The position numbers and the translations under genes were made by a program. A stretch of DNA of 64,000 bases from Alphaproteobacteria bacterium (lineage in GTDB: Bacteria; Pseudomonadota; Alphaproteobacteria; GCA-2731375), in assembly GCA_965232515.1 (NCBI GenBank), contig CBDDPY010000002.1:352001-416000 (forward strand), in the 5' to 3' direction. This document shows positions 47,901 through 63,546 of the stretch, piece after piece. The notes under the pieces were generated by a model that was given only the letters and a program-made list of their open reading frames with translations, did no database searches and had not been told where the DNA came from. How positions within the stretch are numbered: position 1 is the stretch's first letter; each line of letters begins with the position of its first letter.

Positions 47901-48473
47901 GCAATGACCGCAAACGTCATGTCAGGCGACCGGGAGCGCTGCTTTGCCGCCGGTATGACCGATTACATCACCAAGCCGGTCGAACGGGTCGAAATCCTGG
48001 CCGCGATCGGCCGCTGCCTCGATGGTCGGGCGGCGGTGGCCAGGCCGGCCGTGGTGCAGGCATCGTTGCCGGCGGGTGATCTGCTCGATCTCGACATGCT
48101 GCGGCAACTGGGCGCCGACACCGGACTGGATGTGGTGCCCGACCTGATTGCCAGGTTTGCCGACGAAGTGCGCGAGCGGGCCGACCGCATTGCCGCCGCC
48201 GCCGCGGCGGAAGACGGCGAACAGCTGGCGCATGAAGCGCATGCCCTGAAGAGCGGTTCCCGCACCTTCGGCGCGCTGGCGCTGTTCGAGCGCGCCAAGG
48301 CGATCGAATGGGACTGCCGTGACGGCCGTACCTCACGGGCGATCGGCCATTGCGAAGGGCTTCTCGAGCTGGTCGACGCGACGCTTTCGGCGCTCTCCGC
48401 CGTGCCTCGGGAGGCGTTGCGCGCGCCTGCGCCCGCCGACGGCGGCCAGACGGTCAATACTCCTCCGCCTTGA
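44907..48473 (+). CDS. Hybrid sensor histidine kinase (TM-HAMP-PAS x3-HisKA-HATPase-REC(degenerate)-REC-HPt)
   Basis: FLANMSHEIRTPMN, NLVGNAIKFT, DTGIG, GGTGLGL, LMDVAMPVMDG, HPt AHALKSGS; start uncertain. Confidence 0.9.
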   Translation: MGLRQVVILRGNESLSLTWRVLIGIVAVATLSALVGLGLIQLTGLEEIYAQQRPFGALLWAAAACAMAVTMMMIVWLSVVRPLRVLRRRLNDLANGRFEDDAALPAMASAELVALKSDLERVGQTLAVQAERDDERRFHDRYMRLIAQDVPALVAYVDRDLIFRFANRGYAELMGTTTEEIVGKSLKETACESAYEALKARAEIALSGQSIQFERQVTYPDGRDMWARMNYRPDFDENGEVVGYISMIVDIDEHKLAEAELKLSEQRLRDFAEAASDWFWEMGPDLRFTYMSEQVERITGVPVGFHLGKTREELATGIDDQANWARHQKVLEERKPFRNFAYWRHTHDGRTLHVTSSGKPVFDPDGTFLGYRGVGADLTKVVEAEHRAELAQQRLVDAVEALSQGFVLFDSDDRVVMCNRRFLEFFDLGEDVVDEHWRFIDICRYKLRKGSYPEAEGREEEWLAERLEKHRGAHAPFELRLVTGEWLQISERRTSDGGLVIVYSDISALKAAEVSQRDARAQAEAANKAKSDFLANMSHEIRTPMNAVLGMLGMVADSGLNSAQRSYVQVARDSAEMLLDMLNDLLDLSKLEAGKLDLQNAAFDLTSVVEDAVQLMAPRAEAKGLQLATYFDPTLIAELVGDGARLRQIILNLVGNAIKFTDEGGVSIAVRAAMVGERSAGLRIEVADTGIGIAVAGSEPGVVFERFSQLDTEANRSRGGTGLGLAICRHLVEAMGGRIGYRGNGDGGCTFWFELGLGKQPGAAAGRPYPGGRIRALVYETNDVVRATVRRQLEAWGTEVTSCDRIQALLEQAMTAAGPAPFNLVLLDQGALRQGPPKLLDWLGAGRCTAGAVIVLLSRPGHGGIGQSDETEDAALRLTKPLRQADLRLCLALARGESVPSAATPDHRRGGGDAASAGLARVLLVEDSPTNQLVGRLMLEGDRFEVDVAANGEEAVHRVQATAYDVVLMDVAMPVMDGLTATRLIRQLGGDFAELPIIAMTANVMSGDRERCFAAGMTDYITKPVERVEILAAIGRCLDGRAAVARPAVVQASLPAGDLLDLDMLRQLGADTGLDVVPDLIARFADEVRERADRIAAAAAAEDGEQLAHEAHALKSGSRTFGALALFERAKAIEWDCRDGRTSRAIGHCEGLLELVDATLSALSAVPREALRAPAPADGGQTVNTPPP

Positions 48474-49998
48474 TGGGCGAGGCCGCGGCATCGCCGTCGT
48501 TCTCCGCCCAGGCCTGGCGCTTGCGATAGATCGTCGAAGGGCTGACCTCGAGCAGGGCCGCGGCGCGGGGGATGTTGCCGCCGCAATGCCTGATGGCGGC
48601 CTCGATCGTGTCTCTCTCGATCTGCCAAAGCGGCCGGACCGGGGGCAGGGGCGTCTGCTCGGCTTCCGCCAGTCCGCTCGCTTGGAGCGGTTCCTCGGCC
48701 GTATCGGCGACGTCGGGCGCCGCCAGGATCGGGTCTTCGGGTGGCGTCAAGCCGTCGCTGCGCAACGGTGGCGGCAGCATCTCGCTGCCGACGATCTCGC
48801 CGTCGTTCAGGACCACGACGTTGCGTACGATGTTCTGCAATTGGCGGACGTTGCCGGGCCAGTCGTAGGTCTGCAGCTTGGCTTCCGCTTCGCCCGTGAA
48901 GGTGCGGAACCGGCGGCCTTCCTCGCCGGCATAGGCCGCCAGAAACGCGCGGGCGATTTCCAGCACGTCGTTGCCGCGCTCACGCAGCGGCGGCATGTAG
49001 ATCGGGATTACATGCAGTCGGTAATAGAGGTCTTCCCGGAACTCGCCGGCTTCGACGGCCTTCAGCGGGTCGCGATTGGTGGCGCAGATGAAGCGGACGT
49101 CGACCTTCTCGGTCTTGTTGCCGCCGACCTTCAGGAAACTGCCGGTCTGGATAAAGCGCAGCAGCTTGCTCTGCAGGTTGATGTCCATATCGCAGATCTC
49201 ATCGAGGAACAGCGTGCCGCCGTCGGCCCGCGCGGCCGCGCCCTCACGGTCCTCGAGTGCGCCGGTGAAGGCGCCCTTCACATGGCCGAAGATCTCGCTC
49301 TCGATCAGATCCTTCGGAATGGCGGCGCAGTTGATGGCGACGAATGGCGCGTTCTTGCGCGGGCTGCGCTCGTGCACGGCCTCGGCGCAGATTTCCTTGC
49401 CGGTGCCGCTTTCGCCGGTGATGAACACGGTCGCGCGGCTGCTGGCGGCGCCGTCGATGATCCGGTAGACGGCCTGCATGGCCAGCGACGAACCGATGAA
49501 GCCGCCATATTGCCGGCGGACGATGTCCTCCTCGTAGGTTTCGACGATGCGGGTCAGCCGTTGCCGCTCCAGCGCGTTGCGCAGCGTGAAGACCAGGCGC
49601 TCGGCGTTGAACGGCTTGACCAGGAAGTCGAACGCGCCGCCGCGCATGGCGTCGACGGCGACGTTGATCGAGCCATGCGCCGTAATCACCACGACCGCCG
49701 TCGACAGCCCGTTGTCCCGCACATGGCGCAGGATCTCCATGCCGTCCATGTCCGGCAGTTTCAGGTCCAACAGCACGACCGGCGGCGCCTTTTCGTGCAG
49801 TGCCGTCAAGGCGTCCCTGCCGGTATCGGCGTGCACCACGTCGAACGGCTCGTCGCGAAGGTATTCCAGATAGACCCGGGCCAGAGAAGGGCTGTCTTCG
49901 ACCAGCAAGACCGTGGTCCGGGCACCGCTATCGGCGGCGACCTCCGACATATTTCGGTCGGCTATCTCGTTGCTTGATTGCTCGGCGTTCGGTGGCAC
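48454..49998 (-). CDS. Sigma-54-dependent response regulator, LuxO-like
   Basis: REC (VEDS, LLDLKLPD), linker GFIGSS, GESGTGKE, GAFTGA, HTH GNIPRAAALLEVSPSTIYRK; GGGAGG before GTG 49998. Confidence 0.88.
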   Translation of the reverse strand: MPPNAEQSSNEIADRNMSEVAADSGARTTVLLVEDSPSLARVYLEYLRDEPFDVVHADTGRDALTALHEKAPPVVLLDLKLPDMDGMEILRHVRDNGLSTAVVVITAHGSINVAVDAMRGGAFDFLVKPFNAERLVFTLRNALERQRLTRIVETYEEDIVRRQYGGFIGSSLAMQAVYRIIDGAASSRATVFITGESGTGKEICAEAVHERSPRKNAPFVAINCAAIPKDLIESEIFGHVKGAFTGALEDREGAAARADGGTLFLDEICDMDINLQSKLLRFIQTGSFLKVGGNKTEKVDVRFICATNRDPLKAVEAGEFREDLYYRLHVIPIYMPPLRERGNDVLEIARAFLAAYAGEEGRRFRTFTGEAEAKLQTYDWPGNVRQLQNIVRNVVVLNDGEIVGSEMLPPPLRSDGLTPPEDPILAAPDVADTAEEPLQASGLAEAEQTPLPPVRPLWQIERDTIEAAIRHCGGNIPRAAALLEVSPSTIYRKRQAWAENDGDAAASPIKAEEY

Positions 49999-50457: not shown

Positions 50458-52845
50458 TTGACCGACCATTTCACGATCGCCGTGATCGGGTCAGGGCCCG
50501 CCGGGTTGAGTACGGCTGGCCGGGCGGCCGAGGTGGGGTTGTCGCACGTCCTGTACGAGCGCACCGACCACGCATCGGACACCATCTACAAGTACCAGAA
50601 GGGCAAGTATGTCATGGCGACGCCGGACATCCTGCCGCTTCGCAGCCCGTTCGATTTCGAGGCCGACGTGCGCGAGACCGTGCTGGGGACCTGGGACCGC
50701 CAGCTCGAGGAGTATGGCGTCAACATCGTCTACAACACCGAAGTAACCGGCATCAGCGGCAGCAAAGGCAATTTCGAAATCTCGCTGGCCAACGGCACCA
50801 AGGCCACGGCCGAGAATGTCGTCCTGTCGATCGGCCTGCAGGGCAACCTGCGACGGCTCGAAGTACCGGGCGCGGCCGAAGCGACCCATGTGCAATACCA
50901 GCTCGATGATCCGGACGAATACGAGGACGAGACCATCGTCGTTATCGGCGCCGGTGACGCGGCGATCGAGAACGCGGTCGCGCTGTCGAAGCAGAACAAC
51001 GTCATCATCGTCAATCGGCGCGACGAGTTCGCTCGGGCCAAGCAGGGCAACCTGATCCTAATCACCCAGGCGATCGAGAACGGCGACATCCAGTGTTACT
51101 ACAGCGCCTCGCCGGTCTCCGTGGCGCCGAAGTCGATCACGCTGCGCACGCCGGACGGCGACGCCGAGGTTGCCTGTGACCGGATCATCGCCCGGCTCGG
51201 CGCGATCCCGCCGCGCAAGTTCGTCGAATCCTGCGGCATCGAGTTTCCGAACGACAACCCGGCGTCGCTGCCGGAAGTGTCGAAGCACTACGAATCGAAC
51301 GTTCCCGGCCTCTACATCATCGGCGCGCTCGGCGGCTTCCCTCTGATCAAGCAGGCGATGAACCAGGGCTACGAGGTCGTTGAATTCATTCAGGGAAATA
51401 CCGACCTCAAGCCGGCCGACGAGCCGCTGCTGGAAGAAAAGCTGACGCACCTGTCGGGCGTCAGCGTCGACGACTTCCTGCAGTCCGTGCGTGAGAATGT
51501 GCCGTTGTTCGCCGAGCTCAACCCGCTGCTGTTGCGCGAGCTCATGCTGGACAGCGAGGTGCACCGGCCAAAGGCGGGCGAGGTCATCTTCGAGCGCAAC
51601 GACTACACCAACAGCTTTTTCACCATCGTTGACGGCGAGGTGGACATCCAGGTCGATCCTGACGATCCCAGCCAGGTGGTGACGCTGAAGCGCGGCGAGT
51701 TCTTCGGCGAGATGGGCCTGATATCCGGCCGCCGGCGCGCGGCCACGGTGGTTGCGCGCAGCGAATGTACGCTGTTCGAAAGCAACCGCCGGACCATGAT
51801 CAAGCTGGTCAACTCGGTCGAGGAAGTGAAGCGGGTACTGGATCAGACCGCGATCGTCCGCCAGATCCAGACCTATCTGGCGCCCGACCTGTCGACCGAG
51901 GACCTGAGCGATGTCGTCGCCTCGGCCTCGCTGCACAGCCTGAAAGAGGGCGAGCAGCTGTTCCAGGAGGGTGAGACCGGTGACGCCGTTCATCTGATCC
52001 GCCGTGGCTCGGTGACGGTGTCCAGGCGCATCGGCGGGCGCGAGATCGTCTTGTCCTATGTCGCCGCCGGCAACTATATCGGTGAGATGGCGCTGCTGTC
52101 GGATGCGCCGAGGTCGGCGACGGTGCGTGCGGCGATCAACGGCACCGAAACCATCCGTATCGAAGGCGAGGCCTTCAAGACGCTGATGGATCGGGCGCCG
52201 GAGCTGCGCCGCGAAATCGATCAAAAGTTCCGCGACCGGATCGCCGACAACGAACGAATGGCGAGCGCGCCCGAAGCCGGCAGCATTATCCAGTTCCTCG
52301 TCGAGCAGGGCGTTGGCGAGGCGACCGACATCCTGCTGATCGATGAAGCGCTGTGCGTGCGTTGCGATAACTGCGAGAAGGCCTGCGCCGAAACCCATGG
52401 CGGCATCTCCCGTCTCGACCGCGAGGCCGGACCGACCTTCGCCAACGTCCACGTCCCGACCTCGTGCCGGCACTGTGAGCATCCGCATTGCATGGCCGAC
52501 TGTCCGCCGGACGCGCTGCATCGCGACAGCAACGGCGAAGTCTGGATCGACGATTCCTGCATCGGCTGTGGCAACTGCGAGCGGAACTGCCCCTACGGCG
52601 TGATCCACCTGGCGGCCAAGCCGCCGAAGAAGCCAGGCCTGCTCAACTGGCTGCTCTGGGGTGCGGGACCGGGGCCTGGCGAAGACAAGACGGCGAAGGG
52701 CGAAGGTTCCAAGCTGGCCGTGAAATGCGACATGTGCAAGGACATCAAGGGCGGTGCGGCCTGCGTGCGGGCCTGTCCGACCGGTGCGGCGATCCGCGTC
52801 AGTCCCGAGGAGTTCCTTGACCTTGCGGCCCTGGCGCAGCGCTAG
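50458..52845 (+). CDS. FAD/NAD(P)H oxidoreductase fused to two cNMP-binding domains and a 4x[4Fe-4S] ferredoxin domain
   Basis: IGSGPAG and IGAGDAA Rossmann motifs; FFGEMGL...RRAATV and YIGEMAL...PRSATV; CVRCDNCEKAC, CRHCEHPHCMADCP, CIGCGNCERNCP, CDMC...CVRACP; TTG start after AGGAGG. Confidence 0.88.
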   Translation: MTDHFTIAVIGSGPAGLSTAGRAAEVGLSHVLYERTDHASDTIYKYQKGKYVMATPDILPLRSPFDFEADVRETVLGTWDRQLEEYGVNIVYNTEVTGISGSKGNFEISLANGTKATAENVVLSIGLQGNLRRLEVPGAAEATHVQYQLDDPDEYEDETIVVIGAGDAAIENAVALSKQNNVIIVNRRDEFARAKQGNLILITQAIENGDIQCYYSASPVSVAPKSITLRTPDGDAEVACDRIIARLGAIPPRKFVESCGIEFPNDNPASLPEVSKHYESNVPGLYIIGALGGFPLIKQAMNQGYEVVEFIQGNTDLKPADEPLLEEKLTHLSGVSVDDFLQSVRENVPLFAELNPLLLRELMLDSEVHRPKAGEVIFERNDYTNSFFTIVDGEVDIQVDPDDPSQVVTLKRGEFFGEMGLISGRRRAATVVARSECTLFESNRRTMIKLVNSVEEVKRVLDQTAIVRQIQTYLAPDLSTEDLSDVVASASLHSLKEGEQLFQEGETGDAVHLIRRGSVTVSRRIGGREIVLSYVAAGNYIGEMALLSDAPRSATVRAAINGTETIRIEGEAFKTLMDRAPELRREIDQKFRDRIADNERMASAPEAGSIIQFLVEQGVGEATDILLIDEALCVRCDNCEKACAETHGGISRLDREAGPTFANVHVPTSCRHCEHPHCMADCPPDALHRDSNGEVWIDDSCIGCGNCERNCPYGVIHLAAKPPKKPGLLNWLLWGAGPGPGEDKTAKGEGSKLAVKCDMCKDIKGGAACVRACPTGAAIRVSPEEFLDLAALAQR

Positions 52846-52909
52846 GCATGTGCAATAGCCCGACAATGTGCCCGCGCGGCAAACGCAGAACCAAGAAGTA
52901 GGCGAGGGT

Positions 52910-53740
52910 ATGCACGAATCCATCCTGGTGTATCGGCGGTTTCGGTTCCTGAAATGGGCGCTGCTTCTCATGGTCGTGGCCGTTGTCGCCTACGCCGTCG
53001 ACCAGCCCCTCGGCGTGCCGAATGGCGGCACCTGGCTAGGCTACACGCTGGGTACGATCGCGGCCCTGCTGATCGTTTGGCTGACCTGGTTCGGCGTCCG
53101 CAAGCGACGCTACAACCTCGGTCCGACGAAACTCGAGGCCTGGCTGTCGGCGCACGTCTATCTCGGCCTGACCCTGATCATCGTCGCGACGCTGCATACC
53201 GGTTTCCAGTTTGGCTGGAACGTCCACACGCTTGCCTACACGCTGATGATGCTCGTCATCCTGAGCGGTATTTTCGGCGTCTACGCCTACATGCGCTATC
53301 CGGCGCTGATGACCGAAAACCGCCGCGGTCAGACGCTGAACGAAATGCTGGCCCAGATCGCAGAGATCGATGCTGAATGCCGAGACGCTGCGCTGGGGCT
53401 TGGCGATGAGATCAGCAGCGCCGTCCTCAATGCCGCGCAAAACACGCGGATCGGCGGCGGCATGCGCCGACAGCTCTCGGGTCACGATCCGGCCTGCGCC
53501 ACGACGGCCGCCCGCCAGACCGTGCAGGGATTGGCCGAGAGCGCGGAAGCCGGCCAGGCTGAAAGCACCCGTCGGCTGATTTCGCTGTTGTTGCGTAAGG
53601 AGGAGTTGCTGCGCCGCGCGCGTCGTGACGTTCAGTTCAAGGCGTTGATGGATATCTGGTTGTATGTACACGTGCCACTGACGATCGCGCTGATCGCGTC
53701 GTTGGTCGCGCACATCCTTTCCGTCTTCTTCTACTGGTAG
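52910..53740 (+). CDS. Polytopic membrane protein with putative haem-b His ligands
   Basis: Multiple TM helices; two His pairs in TM segments (WLSAHVYLG...TLHTG and WLYVHVPL...VAHIL). Confidence 0.75.
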   Translation: MHESILVYRRFRFLKWALLLMVVAVVAYAVDQPLGVPNGGTWLGYTLGTIAALLIVWLTWFGVRKRRYNLGPTKLEAWLSAHVYLGLTLIIVATLHTGFQFGWNVHTLAYTLMMLVILSGIFGVYAYMRYPALMTENRRGQTLNEMLAQIAEIDAECRDAALGLGDEISSAVLNAAQNTRIGGGMRRQLSGHDPACATTAARQTVQGLAESAEAGQAESTRRLISLLLRKEELLRRARRDVQFKALMDIWLYVHVPLTIALIASLVAHILSVFFYW

Positions 53741-53748
53741 GACCGGCC

Positions 53749-55461
53749 GTGCAAAGTCTGGTTTCGCACCTCACCCGAAAGGCCCGCGGCGGCTACGTCC
53801 ACCGCGATCTCGAGGTCACGTCGGAAATCATCCGGCTCGGCCGCGGCGCCGACAGCGAAGTGTATCTTCCCGACCCCCGCGTGCCGCTGCATGCCGCCGA
53901 GATCCACAGCCAGCCGGGCGGCTACTTCATCCAGGTCGTCGGGCCGGCCAGCCTGCGGGTCAACGGCGCCGTGACCAACAGCGCGCAGTTGAAAGCCGGC
54001 GACAAGGTGGCGTTGGGGCCCTACGACATCGAGATCGTGGCGCCGCCCGCGGGCAAGGATTTCGGACTGACGGTCGAACTGGTCCGCCCGCTTGGCGACG
54101 ATCTCGAGCAGCTGCGCAGCCGCAGCCGCCTTGAGCTATCCGAGACCTGGCTGACCCGCCGCCGCATGGCCTGGCTGCTGGCGGTGATCGTGCTGGCGCT
54201 GTTCCTGGCCATGCCGCTCGCCGGCTTCTTCATGACCCCGCCCGAGGCGCGGCAGAATTTCGTCGAGGCCGAGCCCGACACCGGACCGCTGGCCACCGCC
54301 GATCAGGTTTGGCTCAGCGGCGAGATGTCGGGACCCCACAAGTTTTTCGGCGCGGCCTGCGAGGCCTGCCATCAGCAGCCGTTCGTGCAGGTGCGCGACG
54401 ACACTTGCCTGTCCTGCCATACCGACATCGAGCATCATGCCGAGCCGATGCGGTTCGAGAACGCGGCCGGCGGCGACGTGCCGGCCTGCCAGAGCTGCCA
54501 CAAGGAGCACAACGGCAACGAGGCTATCGTGCTCAACGATCAGGCCTTCTGCAGCAGCTGCCACGCGGATCTCGACAAACGCCTGAACGACGCGGCCCTG
54601 CTGAACGTCTCGGACTTCACCGCAAACCATCCGCAGTTCCGGCCGACCGTCGTCGTCGTGCACGAGACCGGCAAGATGCAGCGCATCTCCTTGTCGGAGA
54701 AGGACAAGCTGGTCGAGCAGTCCGGCATCAAGTTCCCGCACGACAAGCACCTGGTGACCGAGAACGGCGGCATCCGCGCGCCAGAGGGCCGGCGGGTTCT
54801 CGGCTGCAACGACTGCCACGTGGTCGAGCCGGGCGGGCAGGGCCTGCTGCCGATTCGCATGCTGGAGCACTGTCAGGAGTGTCACCAGCTCACCTTCGAC
54901 AAGTCGGCGCCGAAGCGTGTGGTGCCGCACGGTAAGCCGAAGGAGGTGCAGGAGATCCTGAAGGACTTCTACGCCAAGGCGGCGCTGCAGGGTGGCTTCG
55001 ACGACCCCTCGGCGCCGGCGGTCGTGCGCCGGCTGCCGGGCACCCCGTTGCCGCCGGCGGCGGCGAATGACGCGCTGGCCTGGGCCGCGCAGCGGGCCGA
55101 TCAGGCGATATCCATGACCTTCGGCAAGCGGATTTGCGGCACCTGTCACAAAGTCCTGCAGGACCCCAATGGTATTTGGGACGTGATCAAACCGCAGATC
55201 GCGGATCGTTGGATGCCGAAGGGGATCTTCCATCACGCCAGCCACGAAACCATGAAATGCGGCGACTGCCACGAGGCGGCGAAGTCCAAGGTCAGCACCG
55301 ACATCCTGCTGCCTGGTATCGAGAGCTGTCAGGAATGCCACGGTAGCGAGATGGCGACGGACAAAGTCCCCTCGACCTGCATCATGTGCCACCAGTTCCA
55401 CATCGAGGGACAGCCGCGCATGGCGGGCGAGCCGGCCACGGCCGCGATGAAGCAGAATTGA
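53749..55461 (+). CDS. FHA-like domain + TM helix + decahaem cytochrome c
   Basis: IRLGRG...LRVNG...LKAGDKVALG FHA-like domain; TM; ten CxxCH (CEACH, CLSCH, CQSCH, CSSCH, CNDCH, CQECH, CGTCH, CGDCH, CQECH, CIMCH). Confidence 0.88.
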   Translation: MQSLVSHLTRKARGGYVHRDLEVTSEIIRLGRGADSEVYLPDPRVPLHAAEIHSQPGGYFIQVVGPASLRVNGAVTNSAQLKAGDKVALGPYDIEIVAPPAGKDFGLTVELVRPLGDDLEQLRSRSRLELSETWLTRRRMAWLLAVIVLALFLAMPLAGFFMTPPEARQNFVEAEPDTGPLATADQVWLSGEMSGPHKFFGAACEACHQQPFVQVRDDTCLSCHTDIEHHAEPMRFENAAGGDVPACQSCHKEHNGNEAIVLNDQAFCSSCHADLDKRLNDAALLNVSDFTANHPQFRPTVVVVHETGKMQRISLSEKDKLVEQSGIKFPHDKHLVTENGGIRAPEGRRVLGCNDCHVVEPGGQGLLPIRMLEHCQECHQLTFDKSAPKRVVPHGKPKEVQEILKDFYAKAALQGGFDDPSAPAVVRRLPGTPLPPAAANDALAWAAQRADQAISMTFGKRICGTCHKVLQDPNGIWDVIKPQIADRWMPKGIFHHASHETMKCGDCHEAAKSKVSTDILLPGIESCQECHGSEMATDKVPSTCIMCHQFHIEGQPRMAGEPATAAMKQN

Positions 55462-55529
55462 AGATTGGTCGCAGCCGGGGTTTATGGTTAATCTTTAAAA
55501 AACAGGGTGGTCCAGGGGGGCTTTGGTTG

Positions 55530-55970
55530 ATGCGTAATTGGGGTGGCAGGCAGGCGTTCCTGACGGCGGTGTTCACACTGTCGTTCGCTGCCGGTGCTGC
55601 CGCGGCCGAGAAGCTGACGGTGGCAGGTGCCGCCCTCGCCGACGTGACCGTCAATCCGGCGACCGTCGCAACCACGGGCATCAGCCGCACCATCGAACTG
55701 TCGGGCGACGCCCCGGCGGCAACCTTCGTGACCGCACACCTGCCGGACGGCAAGCATCTCCAACGCAGTAATCTGGGCTACTGGCTGCCCTGGGACGGCG
55801 ATGTCGACAGCCTGATCGACAACCGGCTGCCGCTGAACGGCGATGGCACCGTCACCTTCAAGGTGGTCAAGGAAGACCTCTCCGACAAGATGTTCCCGAT
55901 CGCCGTCACGCTGGCCTACACCGTCGGCGAGCAGGTCAAGTTCGGCGTATTTCAGATCCTGCCGCAATGA
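55530..55970 (+). CDS. Small secreted beta-rich hypothetical protein
   Basis: Signal peptide (AFLTAVFTLSFAAGAAAA-E), GC3-rich codons, ATGA coupling to the next gene. Confidence 0.7.
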   Translation: MRNWGGRQAFLTAVFTLSFAAGAAAAEKLTVAGAALADVTVNPATVATTGISRTIELSGDAPAATFVTAHLPDGKHLQRSNLGYWLPWDGDVDSLIDNRLPLNGDGTVTFKVVKEDLSDKMFPIAVTLAYTVGEQVKFGVFQILPQ

Positions 55971-57823
55971 CGATGACGATACCCAAAACGATCAAGCTTC
56001 TCGCCGCCACCTCGATTGCCGCCTGTCTGAGCGTCGCCGCGTCGGCGCAGGAGGCGCTGACCACGGACGAGGTTGGCACCATCATCGCGCAGGCGGCCAT
56101 GGAGGCGCAGACGCGCGGCCGGCCGGCGACGATCGCCGTGGTCGACCGCGTCGGCAACGTCCTGGGCGTCTTCACCATGACCGGCGCGCCTGCGACGGCG
56201 CTGGTGTCGACCTTCCGCGGAGTCACCTCGGGGCTCGAGGGCGCCAACGTGCCGTCGACGACGGCGGCCATCGCCAAGGCCGTTACCGGCGCTTATCTGT
56301 CGTCCGGCGGCAATGCCTTCTCGACCCGAACGGCCAACCAGATCGTGCAGGAATCGTTCAACCCGGGCGAGTCGAGCCAGCCCAGCGGCCCGTTGTTCGG
56401 CGTGCAGTTCAGCCAGCTGCCATGCTCGGACTTCAACACCCGCTTCGCGCCGATGACGGCGAACGCGCTGATCGGGCCGAAGCGCTCGCCGCTCGGCATG
56501 TCGGCCGATCCGGGCGGACTGCCGCTCTACAAGAACAACGTGCCCGTCGGCGGCATCGGCGTCCTGTCCGACGGTATCTACGGCATCGACCGCAACATCC
56601 TCGACATCGACAACGATGACGACGAGCTGATCGCGGTGGCCGGCACCTTCGGTTTCGATCCGCCGGCCGATATCCGGGCCGAGCGCATCACGGTCGAGGG
56701 TAAGACCCTGCGGTTCACCGACCTCAGCTTTGAATCGCTGCAGTCGGACCCGAACAGCGCCCCGTCCTTTGCCGCCGTGAACGGCACGCTCGGCAGCCTG
56801 ACGGCGGTTAACGGCTACACCGCGGCGGCGCTGTCGGCCGGCGTCGCCTACGGCACGGCCGCCTCCGGCGTGCGGCCCGACAACGAGGGCGTCTATTCGG
56901 CCATCATGCAGCCGTTCGTGTTCGTCGACGGTACCGATACGAACCGGTTCCCACCGCGCGCCGGCAGCGACGGCATTCTGACCGCCGCCGAGGTCACCGA
57001 TCTCGTCAATCAGGCGCTTAACATCGCCTTCCGCGGCCGTGCGCAGATCCGCCGCCCGTTGAACAGCTTCATCCAGGTAACGATCTCGGTCGTCGATACC
57101 AACGGCGTGATCCTGGCCATGGCCCGGACGCCGGACGGTCCGATGTTCGGCAGCGACGTGTCGCTGCAAAAAGCCCGCACCGCGGCATTTTTCTCCAGCT
57201 TCTTCGCCGCCGCCGATCTGCGCCAGGGAGGCTTCGGCAGCTACGTGGACGCGACCAAGGCCTTCATCGGCCCGACCGCGCTCGAGGACGGCGTCGCCTT
57301 CGCCGACCGTTCCGGCGGCAACCTGTCGCGCCCGTATTATCCGGACGGCAACGTCAACAACCAGAACGGACCGTTAAGCCGGCCGTTCGGCGACTGGAGC
57401 CCGTTCTCGACCGGCCTGCAGCTCGACATGGTCGCCGGCAACATCGTCACCCATCTGGGCTTCGTCCAGAGCCTCAACGCCGATACGCCGGCGCGCTGCA
57501 CGCCGTTGCCGTTGCGGCTGGCCAGCGGCTCGAACGCCATTCCGAACGGTATTCAGATCTTCCCGGGCAGCGTGCCGGTGTTCAAGAACGGTGCTCTGGC
57601 CGGCGGTCTGGGCGTTTCCGGCGACGGCATCGACCAGGACGACATGATTTCGTTTCTCGGCACCCACAATGCCGGCGTGTCGCTGGCTTCCGGTGTCGGC
57701 AACGCGCCACAGGAAGTGCGGGCCGACCGGCTGACGCCGCAGGGGTCGCGGCTGCGCTACGTCAACTGCCCCTTCAAGCCGTTCATCGCGTCGAACGAGC
57801 AAAACGTCTGCAGCGGCAAATGA
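55967..57823 (+). CDS. Secreted protein with two GlcG/HbpS-like haem-binding domains
   Basis: ATIAVVDRVGNVL...AIAKAVTG...PGGLPLYKN...GGIGV and VTISVVDTNG...SLQKARTA...PGSVPVFKNG...GGLGVSGD. Confidence 0.82.
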   Translation: MTMTIPKTIKLLAATSIAACLSVAASAQEALTTDEVGTIIAQAAMEAQTRGRPATIAVVDRVGNVLGVFTMTGAPATALVSTFRGVTSGLEGANVPSTTAAIAKAVTGAYLSSGGNAFSTRTANQIVQESFNPGESSQPSGPLFGVQFSQLPCSDFNTRFAPMTANALIGPKRSPLGMSADPGGLPLYKNNVPVGGIGVLSDGIYGIDRNILDIDNDDDELIAVAGTFGFDPPADIRAERITVEGKTLRFTDLSFESLQSDPNSAPSFAAVNGTLGSLTAVNGYTAAALSAGVAYGTAASGVRPDNEGVYSAIMQPFVFVDGTDTNRFPPRAGSDGILTAAEVTDLVNQALNIAFRGRAQIRRPLNSFIQVTISVVDTNGVILAMARTPDGPMFGSDVSLQKARTAAFFSSFFAAADLRQGGFGSYVDATKAFIGPTALEDGVAFADRSGGNLSRPYYPDGNVNNQNGPLSRPFGDWSPFSTGLQLDMVAGNIVTHLGFVQSLNADTPARCTPLPLRLASGSNAIPNGIQIFPGSVPVFKNGALAGGLGVSGDGIDQDDMISFLGTHNAGVSLASGVGNAPQEVRADRLTPQGSRLRYVNCPFKPFIASNEQNVCSGK

Positions 57824-59670
57824 AAATGCGTATTCGTATCCTGTTGATGGCTTCCGTCCTGGCGTTGACGCCGTTCACCGTACAGGCCGGCAAGGAACGC
57901 ATCCTCGGCGTTTCGCCGCAATCCGGCTCCGGCTTTCAGGTGCGCCCCGGCGGCGGCGCCGGCTTCGCCGTGCCGGGCGACCGCACCCGTGTGGCGCAGC
58001 GCCGCGTGCCGGGCTCGCCGCCGCCCGGCGCGCCCGAGGACCTGCCGCCCATCGATCCGGACGCGGTGCCGCCGCCGGCGCCGAACCTGCCGCGCGAGTT
58101 CATCCCCATTCCGGACCGCTGGCGACTGATCGAGGCCGTCGGCGTTAACGAGAAATGGTGGGATCCCTATAACCAGAACACGCTGAAGGGCGACCGGCCG
58201 GTCTACAAGGACTGGTTCGTGAACCTGCTGGTGATTTCCGACACCGTGTTCGAGCCGCGCTCGTTCCCGACGCCGATCGCGCCGCAGACCAGCGAAGAGG
58301 CCGGCGATCTCGACGTCTTCGGCGACAACGATCAGATCCTGTTCAACGAAAACCTGATCGTCAGCCTGTCGATCATCAAGGGCAACACCGCCTACAAGCC
58401 GCCGGACTACGAGTTCCGCTTCACGCCGATTTTCAACTACAACCGCGTCGAGGCGGAAGAGAACCGGGTCCTGCTGATCGATCCCGATCGCGGCCGTACC
58501 CGTACCGACCGGCAGCTCGCCTGGCAGGAACTGTTCGTCGACTACCACATTCACAACGTCTCGGACCGCTACGACTTCGATTCGATCCGAGGCGGCATCC
58601 AGCCGTTTTCCAGCGACTTCCGCGGCTTCCTGTTCCAGGACAGCCAGCTCGGCGTGCGCCTTTTCGGCAGCCGCGACAACAACATCTTCCAGTACAATCT
58701 GGCCTGGTTCCGGCGGCTGGAGAAGGACACCAACAGCGGTCTGAACGACATCACCACGAGCGTCCGCGACGACGACATCTACGTGGCGAACCTCTACTGG
58801 CAGGACTTCCTGAAGCTGGGCTTCGTCAGTCAGATCACGGTGCTGCACAACCGCAACCGCGAGGACAACGCCACTTTCTTCAATCTCAACGGTTTCCTCG
58901 AGCGACCGGCGCCGATCGGCGAGGAACGGCCGCGCAACTACGACGTCACCTATATCGGCTATAACGGCGACGGCCGGCTGGGCCGCTTCAACCTGACGGC
59001 GTCGGCCTACTACGCCTTCGGCGAGGACAGTCGCAACAACTTCGCCAGCCTCGACGATTCCGACATCCGCGCCTGGTTCTTCGCCGCCGAGCCATCGATC
59101 GACTTCAGCTGGATCCGGCTGCGCGGCTCGTTCCTCTACGCCAGCGGCGACGACGACCCCTTCGACGACCGCGAGGAAGGCTTCGACGCGCCGTTCGAAA
59201 ATCCGCAGTTCGCCGGCGCCGACACCAGCTACTGGATCCGTCAGACCATTCCGCTGGTCGGCGGCGGCGGCCTGGCGCTGTCGCAGCGCAACGCCGTCTT
59301 GCCGTCGCTCAAGTCCTCGAAGGAGCACGGTCAGTCGAACTTCAACAATCCCGGACTCTGGCTGGTCGGCGTTGGCACTGATCTCGACCTGACGCCGGAG
59401 CTGCGGCTGTCGACCAACTTCAACTATCTGAGGTTCGACAACACGTCCAACCTCGAGTTCCTGCGCAATCAGGGCGATATCGACGAGTCGATCGGCTACG
59501 ACCTGTCGGCGGCGCTGATCTGGCGGCCGCTGTTCATCCAGAACATCGTGCTGCGGCTGTCCGGCGCGGTGCTGATCCCGGAGACCGGCTTCGACGATCT
59601 GTTCAAGGCCGAGGACGACAGCGAGGACATCTTCTATTCGGTCCTGGCCAACCTGGTGCTGACCTATTAG
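57820..59670 (+). CDS. Putative outer-membrane beta-barrel protein
   Basis: Signal peptide, Pro-rich N-terminal extension, alternating aromatic/Asn/Asp-rich strands, C-terminal ...NLVLTY. Confidence 0.72.
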   Translation: MKMRIRILLMASVLALTPFTVQAGKERILGVSPQSGSGFQVRPGGGAGFAVPGDRTRVAQRRVPGSPPPGAPEDLPPIDPDAVPPPAPNLPREFIPIPDRWRLIEAVGVNEKWWDPYNQNTLKGDRPVYKDWFVNLLVISDTVFEPRSFPTPIAPQTSEEAGDLDVFGDNDQILFNENLIVSLSIIKGNTAYKPPDYEFRFTPIFNYNRVEAEENRVLLIDPDRGRTRTDRQLAWQELFVDYHIHNVSDRYDFDSIRGGIQPFSSDFRGFLFQDSQLGVRLFGSRDNNIFQYNLAWFRRLEKDTNSGLNDITTSVRDDDIYVANLYWQDFLKLGFVSQITVLHNRNREDNATFFNLNGFLERPAPIGEERPRNYDVTYIGYNGDGRLGRFNLTASAYYAFGEDSRNNFASLDDSDIRAWFFAAEPSIDFSWIRLRGSFLYASGDDDPFDDREEGFDAPFENPQFAGADTSYWIRQTIPLVGGGGLALSQRNAVLPSLKSSKEHGQSNFNNPGLWLVGVGTDLDLTPELRLSTNFNYLRFDNTSNLEFLRNQGDIDESIGYDLSAALIWRPLFIQNIVLRLSGAVLIPETGFDDLFKAEDDSEDIFYSVLANLVLTY

Positions 59671-59679
59671 GGGCGCGAC

Positions 59680-62600
59680 GTGGGCATGAAAGCAGTATTC
59701 GGTACCCTGATCGCGGCAACCCTGTTGTTGACCGGCACGGCGGCGCTGGCTGCCAGCGGCGAAAGCCCGCGCAGCGTCACCTATTCCGTCACCCCGCCGG
59801 CGCCACGCGGACAGGCGCCTTCCGAGGCGGCCAAGAAGAGCCTCGGCTGCATGAGCTGCCACACCGAGACCGACTCGGCCACCATGCACAACAACCCTGC
59901 CGTCGTGCTGGGTTGCACGGACTGCCATGGCGGCGATGCGACCGTCATGCGGCCGCCGGGCACCGTCTATGCCGACGACAGCTATCGCCGGGCGCTCGAC
60001 CAGGCGCATGTCCAGCCGCGGTTCCCCGAGACCTGGGGCTATCCGTCGAGCGCCACGCCGCCGCGCACATATTCGATCCTGAACCGGGAAGCGCCGGAAT
60101 ACATCCGCTTCATCAATCCGGCCGATTACCGGATCGCGCGCGAGGCCTGCGGCGCTTGCCATCTGTCGGATATCCATGCCACCGAACGCAGCCTGATGTC
60201 GACGGGCGCCATGCTGTGGGGCGGCGCCGCCTACAACAACGGCATCCTGCCCTACAAGAACTACATCGTCGGCGAAGCCTATACGCGCGAAGGCGTGCCG
60301 GCCGGCGTCGTCAGCCCGAATGCCGACAAGCTGACGCCATCGATGCTGCGCCGGGGTCTGTTGCCGCAACTCGTGCCACTGCCGGCCTTCGAGGTGACGG
60401 TGCCGGGCGACGTTTTCCGCGTGTTCGAACGCGGCGGCCGCAATATCCTGAATCTGTTCCCGGAGATCGCAAATCCGAACAGTCTGGGTCAGCTGCAGCG
60501 CCTGGAAGAGCCGGGCCGGCCTGACTTGCGGCAATCGAACCGCGGTCCCGCCACGGGCCTCAGGATCTCGGTGCCGATCCTCAACGTCCACAAGACGCGA
60601 CTGAACGATCCGTTCATGTGGTTCATGGGCACCAACGATCAGCCGGGCGACTACCGTTCCTCGGGCTGCGCCGGCTGCCACGTGATCTACGCCAACGACC
60701 GCGACCCGATCCATTCCGGTCCCTATGCGGTCTACGGCAACGAGGGCAAGAGCCACTCCGTCGACCCGACCATTCCGAAGAACCGGTCGGGCCATCCGAT
60801 CAAGCACGAGTTCACGCGCGCCATTCCGACCTCGCAGTGCATGCCCTGCCACATGCACCAGCCGAACATCTTCCTGAACTCCTATCTCGGCTACACCATG
60901 TGGGACTACGAGTCCGACGCGCCGGCGATGTGGCCGGAGCAGCAGAAGTATCCGAGCCATTCCGAGATGTTCGAGACGCTGTCCCGCAATCCCGAGGAAG
61001 CGGCGATCCGCGGCAAGTGGAGCGACGTCGAGTTCACCAAGAAGGTCAGCGAGCTCAACCCGACCCTGAACGCCACCCAGTTCGCCGATTACCACGGTCA
61101 CGGCTGGAATTTCCGCGGCATCTTCAAGAAGGACCGCAAGGGCAACCTGCTGGATGCCGAGGGCAAGATCGTCGAGCCGGACGATCCCGAAAAATTCAAG
61201 AAGGCCGTGCATATGAAGTCGATCCATGCCGAGGTCGGCATGCAATGCGTCGACTGCCATTTCGAGGGCGATACCCACGGCAACGGCTATATCTACGGCG
61301 AGGTCGCGCCGGCCATCGAAATCCGTTGCAAGGATTGCCACGGCACCGTCGATACCGCGCCGCCGCTGACTACCAGCGGCCCGGCCGCGGCGCCGGGTGG
61401 CCGGCCGCTGGGGCTGCTGCGCCAGGCCGATGGCCGCAAGCGCTTCGAGTATCGCGGCACCGAATGCGACAAGCCGCGCAACGAGCCCCGCGACTGCCGC
61501 CTCTATCAGCGTTCGGCCGTCTGGCCGGACCTGGAATGGGAAGTCTCGCTGCTGCGCGACAACGTCGATCCCAGCCATCCGACCTACAACGAGAAGTCGG
61601 CGCGGGCGAAGCTGATGTCAGAGGGCACCTCGATGGAATGGGGCCCGGGCGTCAAGAAGGAAGATCTGGCGCATAAAGACGACGAGATGATGTGCTTCAC
61701 CTGCCATCTCTCCTGGACCACGTCGTGCGCCGGCTGTCACCTGCCGATCCAGGCCAACTGGAAGACCGAACGGCATCGCTACGAGGGCGGCGAGACCCGC
61801 AACTTCGCGACCTATAATCCGCAGGTCGCCCGCGACCAGATGTTCCAGCTCGGCCGTCACAGCCCGGTCAAGGGCAGCGCCATCACGCCGATCCGCTCGA
61901 GCTCCGCGCTGGTGCTCTCGTCGCGCAACATCAACCGCGAGCTGATCTATATCCAGCAGCCGCCGGTGGCCGCCAGCGGCCATTCCAGTCAGGCCTTCGC
62001 GCCGCACTTCCCACACACGGCGCGCAAGACCGAGACCAAGACCTGCTCCGACTGCCATTTGAGCGAAGAGAACGACAACAACGCGATCATGGCGCAGCTC
62101 CTGCTGCACGGGACCAACTTCGTGAACTTCGTCGGCTACAACGCCTGGGTCGGCGGCGAGGGCGGTTTCGAGGCCGTGCGCGTCACCGAGTGGGACGAGC
62201 CGCAGGCCGTGATTGGCAGCTACCTTCACCGCTACGCCTACCCCGATTGGTATGCCGAGCATCAGGCGCGCGATCGCAAGCTCTACGAGAGCTACTCCCA
62301 GGGCGGCGCCATCGCCTCCTGTCTGCAGCTGCGCGGCGAGTACCTCTATGTGGCCGAGGGGCCGGACGGCATGCAGGCCTATGACGTCGCCAGCATCGCC
62401 AACAAGGGCCACTCCGACAAGATTATCAAGGCGCCGTTCAGCCAGATGGGCCACAACACGCGCATTGCCAGCAAGAATGCGACGTGCGTGGTGCTGCCGA
62501 CCAACCAGCCGATCCATCCGGACCGTATCGACTCGGATCCGGAACGGGCCAAGCTGATGTACGAGGACAACCTCGAGCAGCCATTCCATCCGATCTACGA

Positions 62601-63546
62601 CTACGCCTTCATCACCGATTCCGAGGAAGGCCTGATCCTGACCGACGTCAACACGCTGTCGGACGGCCTGCCGCGCAACAACTTTTTCACCCGCGCGCTG
62701 ACCTGGAACGAGGGCGGCGTGCTGAACGGCGCCCGGCACCTGACCATCGCCGGCTATTATTTCTACATCGCCGCCGACGCCGGCGTTGTCGTGCTGAACA
62801 TGAACGATCCGCTGCAGCCCAAGGTCGTCGACGTGCTGCCGATGGATGACGTGCGCGCCACAGCCCTGCAGTTCCGCTATCTGTTCGTGACCGACCGCGA
62901 TGGCCTGAAGGTGGTCGACGTCACCAATCCCGAAGCACCTCGGCTGGTCCAGGGCGCCGTCGTGCCGCTGGCCGATGCGCAACGGATCTACGTGGCCCGC
63001 ACCTACGCTTATGTCGCCGCCAAGCAGGACGGTCTGGTCATCGTCGATGTCGAGAACCCGGAAAAGCCTGTCCTGTTCACCAAGTTCACGGCGGACGGCA
63101 GGATCAATGACGCCTACGACGTCGTGGTTGGCTCGACCAACGCCTCGCTCTATGCCTATGTCGCCGACGGCGCCAATGGCCTCAAGGTCGTGCATCTGAC
63201 CGCGCCCGACAAACAGCCGCGCTTCTACGGTTTCAGCCCCGAGCCGGTGCCGGAGCTGATTGCTTGGTGGCCGACCAAATGGCCGGCGATCGCGCTCTCC
63301 AAGGGCCTGGACCGCGACCGCGGCGTCGACGAGACCGGCGGCCAGATGGCCATCTTCGGCCGGCTCGGCTCGCGTCCGCTCAACCTCGAGGAGCAGCGCC
63401 GCTTCTATCTCGACAAGAACGGCGATCCCTGGACGGTGACGGACGAGATCGACCGCCGCCGCTTCGTGCCGGCCGGCCAGCGCCGCAGTGCCGGTACTGG
63501 CGATGGCCGCCGGGCCGAGGCCGAGCCGTCCGTCACTGCCAACTGA
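59680..63546 (+). CDS. Secreted decahaem cytochrome c with C-terminal LVIVD-repeat beta-propeller
   Basis: Signal peptide; ten CxxCH (CMSCH, CTDCH, CGACH, CAGCH, CMPCH, CVDCH, CKDCH, CFTCH, CAGCH, CSDCH); YAYVAAKQDGLVIVDVENP-type repeats. Confidence 0.88.
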   Translation: MGMKAVFGTLIAATLLLTGTAALAASGESPRSVTYSVTPPAPRGQAPSEAAKKSLGCMSCHTETDSATMHNNPAVVLGCTDCHGGDATVMRPPGTVYADDSYRRALDQAHVQPRFPETWGYPSSATPPRTYSILNREAPEYIRFINPADYRIAREACGACHLSDIHATERSLMSTGAMLWGGAAYNNGILPYKNYIVGEAYTREGVPAGVVSPNADKLTPSMLRRGLLPQLVPLPAFEVTVPGDVFRVFERGGRNILNLFPEIANPNSLGQLQRLEEPGRPDLRQSNRGPATGLRISVPILNVHKTRLNDPFMWFMGTNDQPGDYRSSGCAGCHVIYANDRDPIHSGPYAVYGNEGKSHSVDPTIPKNRSGHPIKHEFTRAIPTSQCMPCHMHQPNIFLNSYLGYTMWDYESDAPAMWPEQQKYPSHSEMFETLSRNPEEAAIRGKWSDVEFTKKVSELNPTLNATQFADYHGHGWNFRGIFKKDRKGNLLDAEGKIVEPDDPEKFKKAVHMKSIHAEVGMQCVDCHFEGDTHGNGYIYGEVAPAIEIRCKDCHGTVDTAPPLTTSGPAAAPGGRPLGLLRQADGRKRFEYRGTECDKPRNEPRDCRLYQRSAVWPDLEWEVSLLRDNVDPSHPTYNEKSARAKLMSEGTSMEWGPGVKKEDLAHKDDEMMCFTCHLSWTTSCAGCHLPIQANWKTERHRYEGGETRNFATYNPQVARDQMFQLGRHSPVKGSAITPIRSSSALVLSSRNINRELIYIQQPPVAASGHSSQAFAPHFPHTARKTETKTCSDCHLSEENDNNAIMAQLLLHGTNFVNFVGYNAWVGGEGGFEAVRVTEWDEPQAVIGSYLHRYAYPDWYAEHQARDRKLYESYSQGGAIASCLQLRGEYLYVAEGPDGMQAYDVASIANKGHSDKIIKAPFSQMGHNTRIASKNATCVVLPTNQPIHPDRIDSDPERAKLMYEDNLEQPFHPIYDYAFITDSEEGLILTDVNTLSDGLPRNNFFTRALTWNEGGVLNGARHLTIAGYYFYIAADAGVVVLNMNDPLQPKVVDVLPMDDVRATALQFRYLFVTDRDGLKVVDVTNPEAPRLVQGAVVPLADAQRIYVARTYAYVAAKQDGLVIVDVENPEKPVLFTKFTADGRINDAYDVVVGSTNASLYAYVADGANGLKVVHLTAPDKQPRFYGFSPEPVPELIAWWPTKWPAIALSKGLDRDRGVDETGGQMAIFGRLGSRPLNLEEQRRFYLDKNGDPWTVTDEIDRRRFVPAGQRRSAGTGDGRRAEAEPSVTAN

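Follow-up and report, generated by a model that had tools for sequence, protein, structure and literature searches.

An eight-gene cluster of an alphaproteobacterium with a predicted NAD(P)H-linked multihaem chain and a modelled narrow outer-membrane barrel

The window analysed here is a 64,000-nt stretch of the genome of an alphaproteobacterium (assembly GCA_965232515.1, contig CBDDPY010000002.1, positions 352,001 to 416,000 of the forward strand). At positions 50458-63546 it carries seven co-directional open reading frames (ORFs), designated g1 to g7, and together with an eighth gene (H8) beyond the end of the window they form a system that is real and widespread, the co-occurrence of its members not being due to chance. 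The reading to which we give an even chance, on sequence and model evidence, is a regulated export of NAD(P)H electrons towards a station in the periplasm that would act on a small solute. The anatomy of the cluster, its conservation, the homology of its inner module to the published ptd and PCC4 clusters, the modular exchange of its parts, and, in a structure model, the narrow fold of its barrel are established in this work. When H8 is added to the 20 c-haems of g3 and g7, the system totals 25, which is unexpected for aerobic heterotrophs.

The seven genes are tightly spaced, with intergenic gaps of 64, 8, 68, -4, -4, and 9 nt from g1 to g7, all on the plus strand, and each is present in a single copy in the host genome of 7.4 Mb. 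An earlier note on this DNA had described such a row of genes, with their domains and 20 c-haems, and ORF and Pfam/NCBIfam scans bore it out: Pyr_redox, two cyclic-nucleotide-binding (cNMP) domains, and Fer4 were recognized on g1, FHA and cytochrome on g3, an HbpS-like domain on g5, and LVIVD with a weak cytochrome match on g7, with 10 CxxCH each on g3 and g7. No match above the cut-off was obtained for g2, g4, and g6. A promoter and terminator scan of the cluster remained at chance level. Contigs of RNA run X1 are spread with equal coverage over genes, flanks, and intergenic region and may originate from DNA, run X2 yielded short fragments only, and no reads of two raw-read runs mapped to the cluster; these data were not used as evidence of expression.

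Relatives were collected by scanning the contigs of GTDB for matches to g6, which returned at least 340 relatives among 500 pattern hits; the best 80 loci were kept, picked by closeness to g6 and not independent of each other. In these, g5 was present in 80, g7 in 73, g3 in 68, g2 in 66, the FAD head of g1 in 60, and g4 (55530-55970, a small exported protein of 146 aa) in 21. The order g1-g2-g3-g5-g6 was kept in 53 of the 54 loci with enough upstream DNA (L066 being the exception), and g7 was present in all 60 with enough downstream DNA; the genes are thus conserved together. The seven-gene membership given in the earlier note therefore stands as regards gene order, but g4 is an accessory gene and H8 has to be added. 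Of 400 other genomes sampled evenly from the phylum, nine had a strong match to g6 and one more a weak match. A close g2 was found in all nine, once 675 kb distant from g6, and in 12 of the 400 in total, which leaves three genomes having the inner part with no detected barrel. The relatives, at least 340 species-level GTDB loci, include records of Alcanivorax, Haliea/Parahaliea, Colwellia, SAR116, and Oceanibacterium, and the barrel family extends to Blastocatellia and Isosphaera.

H8 (G000:C2:417018-418376, minus strand, 1.5 kb past g7) encodes a pentahaem protein of 452 aa with one CX4CH and four CxxCH motifs, a c554-like N-terminal start, and five fully invariant spare His for its five haems. 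It belongs to the system: clustering of neighbours showed it at 61 of 81 loci, or at 42 of 45 when only well-flanked loci are counted, and matches at an expectation value (E) of 1e-20 or better fell in the same nine of the 400 sampled genomes as those of g6. Among 40 relatives, its match was strong in all six with a full-length g7, plus one 77%-complete genome in which g7 was not found. Three placements occur across the loci, namely after g7, divergent before g1, and convergent after g7 as here. Identity with PtdA of the ptd cluster was rejected, as the best E was 0.018 against the PtdA-like protein of locus L127. A prediction of a complex of g6 and H8 scored 0.00, gave no answer, and was not used as evidence. 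A prepilin peptidase accompanies 16 of 81 loci and a small CcmH/CycH-TPR protein 14 of 81, both beside H8. At L091:4527-13308, these two stand beside H8 and are followed by a type II secretion cluster, the GspE match of which lies elsewhere in the genome; a 339 aa ORF with no Pfam match (L091:1957-2976) is located between g7 and H8. Loci L056, L078, L080, and L088 have two H8 copies, one flanking each end of the cluster.

The inner module consists of g1, g2, and g3, and its counterpart is already in print. The cluster ptdABCDEFG (bioRxiv 10.1101/2023.11.21.568154) is described as a putative cluster with a cNMP-FeS protein, a membrane protein with five transmembrane (TM) segments, and a decahaem cytochrome, and subgroup II of PCC4 (He et al. 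2017, PMC5566968) is presented as a putative cluster with the same three inner components. By these descriptions both were treated as one cluster type and compared through loci that fit them, such as L127. Eleven weaker matches of g2 were fetched, seven of which are of the ptd/PCC4 type, three of the PCC3 type, and one of another type.

Protein g1 (50458-52845, 795 aa) is cytoplasmic, with a FAD domain of TrxR/YpdA fold, two cNMP-binding domains, and a DmsB-like 4x[4Fe-4S] domain. The four Fe-S cysteine motifs are present in 60 out of 60 full-length homologues, and the NADPH-type motifs GxGDxA and NR[RSK] in 59 and 56 of them, respectively, from which we infer that the FAD domain oxidises NADPH. 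A CxxC in the FAD head occurs in one of the 60 only and is missing in g1 itself; the best whole-family model is YpdA, below its cut-off. The inner membrane protein (IMP) g2 (52910-53740, 276 aa) is PtdF-like and of the PCC3/PCC4 type. It has five hydrophobic segments, the His pairs H82/H96 and H254/H268 in two WX3HX13H motifs, and SGXXG; these two motifs plus SGXXG are the five-TM IMP definition of He et al., and of the 64 loci in which a g2 ORF is present, 62 conform to it. All four His are invariant in 35 of 35 aligned sequences drawn from the cluster types named above, so that g2 probably carries two b-haems, in agreement with the earlier note, which had proposed a haem-binding membrane protein. 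Genes g1 and g2 are fused in L140:2980-8009 and L142:3050-8856 into one protein of 1120-1135 aa, accompanied by a g3 with 8-9 haems, and g6 was not found in these two genomes. Protein g3 (53749-55461, 570 aa) is PtdG-related and consists of a degenerate FHA-like domain, a TM anchor, and a periplasmic decahaem part. Its haem region is compact, with some 39 residues to each haem, and its 10 haems are accompanied by 10 spare His that are near-invariant, which makes g3 wire-like; its invariant ligands point to a bis-His decahaem. The earlier suggestion of a redox chain, in which a cytoplasmic NAD(P)H flavoprotein would feed periplasmic multihaems by way of Fe-S clusters and a membrane protein of the dihaem-b type, is supported by motifs and conserved gene order.

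Both cNMP cassettes are canonical in g1 itself; among 47 homologues, one cassette is canonical in 47 and the other in 42. Altered cassettes characterise every one of the 13 members of a clade that also gained PP2C and FHA genes, and on the tree this alteration together with the gain is a single event. Gating of the chain by cNMP is plausible. Control through the FHA domain of g3, as proposed in the earlier note, is doubtful, since the phosphothreonine-binding positions are poorly kept in the homologues (the conserved His in 20%, the Arg in less than 70%). Divergent from g1, the window encodes at 44907-49998 a large hybrid-sensor-kinase-like protein and a sigma-54-type response regulator, recognized by motifs only; both were rejected as core parts, being absent among the conserved neighbours of the relatives.

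The outer part comprises g5, g6, and g7. Exported protein g5 (55967-57823, 618 aa) is a tandem HbpS/GlcG (DUF336) protein. In its C-terminal domain, K402, S551, and D558 are the equivalents of K57, S114, and D121 of EfgA, and they are kept throughout the 23 near homologues (100%) and in 95-97% of the 38 distant ones. A haem binder of the PduO/HbpS type was rejected, as the ligand is absent: g5 has no His at the place aligned with the haem ligand His18 of PduO, and none is kept across distant members. Many relatives of g5 start with a lipobox and are lipoproteins there. We infer from its sequence that g5 is the substrate-binding part. In the g5 alignment, loci with g4 seem to have no g5 lipobox (one match is doubtful), and several loci with no g4 also have none.

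The barrel g6 (57820-59670, 616 aa) is predicted as an outer-membrane protein. Its model (pLDDT 84.4, pTM 0.85) has 18 long strands, so the claim of a beta-barrel in the earlier note is supported by the model although a Pfam match is missing. The best structural matches of the model are AlgE (E 7.6e-17), followed by solute channels of the Occ/OprD type, and the Atlas match of g6 is an alginate-export cluster, 21% of whose members carry that family. No haem motif is present within the barrel. According to the model, g6 is more probably a narrow AlgE/Occ-type solute channel than a sleeve of the MtrB type.

The largest protein of the cluster is g7 (59680-63546, 1288 aa), an exported decahaem with an ExtM-related core, large haem-free inserts, and an LVIVD beta-propeller. 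Across 21 near and 40 distant homologues, its 10 haems are accompanied by 10 invariant spare His, with three more partly kept, and the haem-free inserts contain many invariant charged residues. The core is homologous (probability 99.8) to a stand-alone 12-haem ExtM-like protein (G000:C2:3044509-3047046, L092); in the same genome, a nine-haem cytochrome fused to TPR repeats is encoded at G000:C2:6716575-6719670 (L093). A model of the g7 haem domain (pLDDT 63) gave no Foldseek match at E of 0.001 or less, with a best Z of 2.6, which is no evidence of a new fold, and the catalytic multihaem folds of HAO, NrfA, OTR, and MccSep did not match this weak model. Sequence searches of PDB with g7 and with the profiles of g6, g7, and g2 gave nothing usable. 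A PQQ-dependent propeller was rejected as a general reading, as PqqC was found in one of 10 carriers; a five-genome search was silent, its controls included, and carriers may scavenge the cofactor. No paper on the g5-g6-g7 trio was found in literature searches, which left out subscription journals and closed supplements.

A profile of g6 reached 1948 clusters at 50% identity, and a distant branch of 80 metagenome loci was compiled. In this branch, g7 directly follows g6 in all 52 loci with enough flank, g5 is near g6 in 27 of 37, and the cNMP-FeS gene was seen in 12, while the TrxR-type head is found in none of the 80. In L208 and L217, NuoF and NuoG-like proteins replace that head. In L211, an FNR-2Fe2S protein of the PtdC type (a PtdC orthologue, 42% identical) stands with inner genes resembling those of ptd, and g5-g6-g7 come immediately after them. 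All replacement heads belong to NAD(P)H flavoprotein families, and with the TrxR type there are three unrelated head types. From these swaps, the constant core is g6-g7, usually with g5, and cNMP-FeS-IMP where the flank reaches. Fusions of cNMP-FeS and IMP occur in L146 and L194. Three of the best 150 representatives of the barrel have a tetrahaem c3 fused to the N-terminus, one of these clusters being named Blastocatellia. Some barrel relatives (P0131, P0137, P0139, L157:3381-6239) have SPOR, SH3, or AMIN N-terminal domains, which by their sequence suggest a peptidoglycan tether. Beside clusters of the distant form, a bacterial globin (four loci; L149:7014-7523), a Ser/Thr kinase (L147:6388-7512), and a PP2C protein (L146:5366-6634) were also noted.

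In the preferred reading, export to a periplasmic station, electrons taken from NADPH by the FAD domain of g1 would be relayed by the four Fe-S clusters, reach the two b-haems of g2 in the manner of the NOX/ferric-reductase superfamily, and go on to the g3 decahaem; this path is suggested by gene order and the g1-g2 fusions, and its cofactors by the invariant ligands. From g3, electrons would reach H8 and g7 in the periplasm, as their co-inheritance suggests. The proteins g5, g6, and g7 would together form the fixed end of the chain, located at the outer membrane's inner face, where g6 would admit a small solute, the DUF336 pocket of g5 would bind it, and the haems would reduce it. By analogy, the whole resembles a NOX-type outward chain joined to an ext-like terminal of solute porin and periplasmic multihaem. 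Outward electron flow costs NADPH and membrane potential, as in NOX, and for this reason the in-line cNMP domains may serve as a gate. The likely role would be detoxification, redox disposal, or activation of the solute rather than mineral respiration. In favour of this reading are the NADPH-type motifs of g1, the g1-g2 and cNMP-FeS-IMP fusions, the replacement of the head within NAD(P)H flavoprotein families, the soluble transhydrogenase SthA in or beside the cluster in three of the 80 distant loci, the solute-channel fold of the modelled barrel, the rarity of GspD among the carriers, the adjacency of g6 and g7 with g5 usually near, the tetrahaem c3 fused to some barrels, and the precedent of the Geobacter ext cluster, to whose ExtM the g7 core is distantly related and whose ExtKL is weakly matched by the PtdA-like protein of the sister system.

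Several observations weigh against this reading. The spare His match the haems in number in g7 (10/10), H8 (5/5), and g3 (10/10), which fits pure electron transfer; with no open haem evident from these counts, a classical haem active site is disfavoured. The gene g5 is absent nearby in 10 of 37 distant loci, and nine of the 12 distant cNMP-FeS loci have no flavin head in the fetched DNA, some of these loci being cut short. Pfam Ferric_reduct matches one of 35 g2 members only. A full type II secretion cluster adjoins H8 here, which with the prepilin peptidase of other loci makes surface export possible, and the motifs leave the direction of electron flow unfixed.

An electron conduit through the whole envelope was the model of the earlier note and is that of the PCC4 and ptd authors; here g6 would bridge the periplasmic haems to a g7 located on the surface, perhaps exported by type II secretion. 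Such an extracellular conduit agrees with the 25 c-haems, for which the His counts permit bis-His ligation throughout, with the constant adjacency of g6 and g7, with type II secretion genes that adjoin H8 in this genome and at a few loci of other alphaproteobacterial records, and with LVIVD proteins being described as surface-associated. It is nevertheless unlikely. The modelled g6 has the 18-strand fold of a solute channel and its barrel lacks an internal haem motif; GspD exceeded the cut-off in one of five other carriers, all five from one family; and g7 has about 80 residues per haem, compared with about 33 described for MtrA-type wires. With its N-terminus reading as an ordinary signal peptide, the barrel fold and the rarity of GspD make a periplasmic g7 likelier. 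A wire that crosses the outer membrane is improbable, and the Mtr/Pcc-type logic assumed in the earlier note is not supported at this membrane.

The outer trio might instead oxidise a low-potential periplasmic solute, such as an aldehyde or reduced sulfur in the g5 pocket, with electrons flowing inward to NAD(P)H and bypassing the quinone pool. FNRs of the TrxR type and NuoF-type heads are reversible, SthA (soluble transhydrogenase) lies in or beside the cluster in three of the 80 distant loci, g5 keeps the EfgA residues that bind formaldehyde derivatives, and the scheme of He et al. for PCC4 has inward flow. This reading is rather improbable, as no Mo/W subunit is present in the cluster, PqqC is as scarce as stated above, and the K/S/D triad is described as widespread in DUF336 proteins and not specific to aldehydes. 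Moreover, flow against the membrane potential needs a donor of very low potential.

An electron store or sensor, in which the haems buffer or report the redox state of the envelope while the HbpS-like, FHA, and cNMP parts serve as output rather than control, would suit HbpS and EfgA, both described as sensors, the lack of a visible open catalytic haem, the PP2C and FHA genes of the 13-member clade, and the kinase and PP2C genes beside some distant loci, but it is very improbable, since sensing would hardly repay the cost of an invariant barrel of the solute type together with haem proteins of about 11 kb, the core encodes no output domain, and the NAD(P)H head is repeatedly exchanged for other NAD(P)H enzymes.

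If electron export to a periplasmic station is true, it would add a regulated route from NAD(P)H to the periplasm, and it would caution that clusters of porin and multihaem such as PCC4/ptd, which are often taken to indicate extracellular electron transfer, may encode enzymes of the periplasm that lie behind solute channels. A broader generalization is offered tentatively. The cNMP-FeS-IMP-decahaem module may be a general ligand-gated, quinone-independent electron plug, combined with NAD(P)H heads of the TrxR, NuoF-G, or FNR type and with PtdA/B, PCC3, or g5-g6-g7 terminals. The g5-g6-g7 terminal might then be a redox enzyme coupled to a channel, of a kind not yet described and having a new multihaem fold; common among aerobic heterotrophs of marine and soil habitats, it might even run inward and yield NADPH from a periplasmic substrate.

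Of the known systems, the ptd/PCC4 type is closest. L127 has the gene order pentahaem-porin-FNR-tetrahaem-cNMP/FeS-IMP-decahaem; in both types a porin gene is present, the cNMP and Fe-S gene lies upstream of the IMP, and the decahaem downstream. The cNMP protein is 34-40% identical to g1 over the Fe-S domain, the five-TM IMP 20-25% identical to g2 with the same motifs, the decahaem 22-26% identical to g3 over short stretches only, and the c554-like tetrahaem PtdD 25-29% identical to H8 over about 160 aa, H8 being longer and pentahaem. The two types differ in the head, which in g1 is fused and of the Pyr_redox/TrxR type, whereas PtdC-like proteins have FAD_binding_6/NAD_binding_1/Fer2 and occur here only in the hybrid L211. 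Alignment of g6 with the PtdB-like porin of L127 had an hhalign probability of 0.1, which is a sequence test and is compatible with a shared fold. PtdA (pentahaem whose C-terminal part is a beta-sandwich) has no counterpart among the conserved neighbours, and the tandem HbpS protein, the decahaem-LVIVD protein, and the FHA-like domain are additional in the present cluster. By sequence, g1-g3 would thus correspond to ptdE/F/G (PCC4), published but uncharacterised, and the outer part g5-g6-g7 differs. The earlier statement that the operon cannot be matched was correct in that no characterised complex fits, but too strong in view of this putative module. The PCC3 type of He et al. has the same IMP motif family, and g2 finds L128, L130, and L131 directly; it differs by repeat cytochromes with 21-46 haems and very large porins, and these three loci have no cNMP-FeS partner.

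For the ext cluster of Geobacter, a solute porin is described that is paired with a polysulfide reductase, a pentahaem protein of the periplasm (PMC5877670, PMC13510729). The layout of extHIJKLMNOPQS is similar, with a substrate-binding lipoprotein, a solute porin, a small protein, a pentahaem, and an ExtM-type multihaem. The g7 protein partially matches the ExtM model (E 1.4e-17), but its 63 bits are far from the cut-off of 800 of NCBIfam NF040943, and H8 has no match to ExtKL. Furthermore, ext uses a Rieske/cytochrome b link and a rhodanese, whereas the present cluster has NAD(P)H-FeS-IMP and DUF336. The PtdA-like pentahaem of L127 (L127:1853-4090) shows a weak match to the model of ExtKL/MccSep (E 7e-10, well short of the cut-off), and both PtdA and ExtKL/MccSep are described as pentahaem plus beta-sandwich, so ptd/PCC4 may reduce sulfur or chalcogens rather than act as a conduit to metals.

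With MtrCAB, PioAB, and MtoAB, the cluster shares decahaems beside an outer-membrane barrel gene, but MtrB is described as a sleeve of 26 strands and g6 is modelled as an 18-strand channel; the Pfam family MtrB_PioB matched neither g6 nor anything else in this genome. In Mtr, electrons enter from quinol. With NOX and ferric reductases, the system shares the cytoplasmic NAD(P)H flavoprotein and the two HX13H pairs of g2, on TM3 and TM5, and it differs by an Fe-S relay and cNMP domains in between and a cytochrome chain as acceptor. The one Ferric_reduct match among the 35 g2 members has an E of 0.0013, and Ni_hydr_CYTB matches 15 of 35 at E of 0.01 or less. The system is not a member of Mtr and has only the inner module in common with ptd/PCC4; judged by sequence, that module is already in print.

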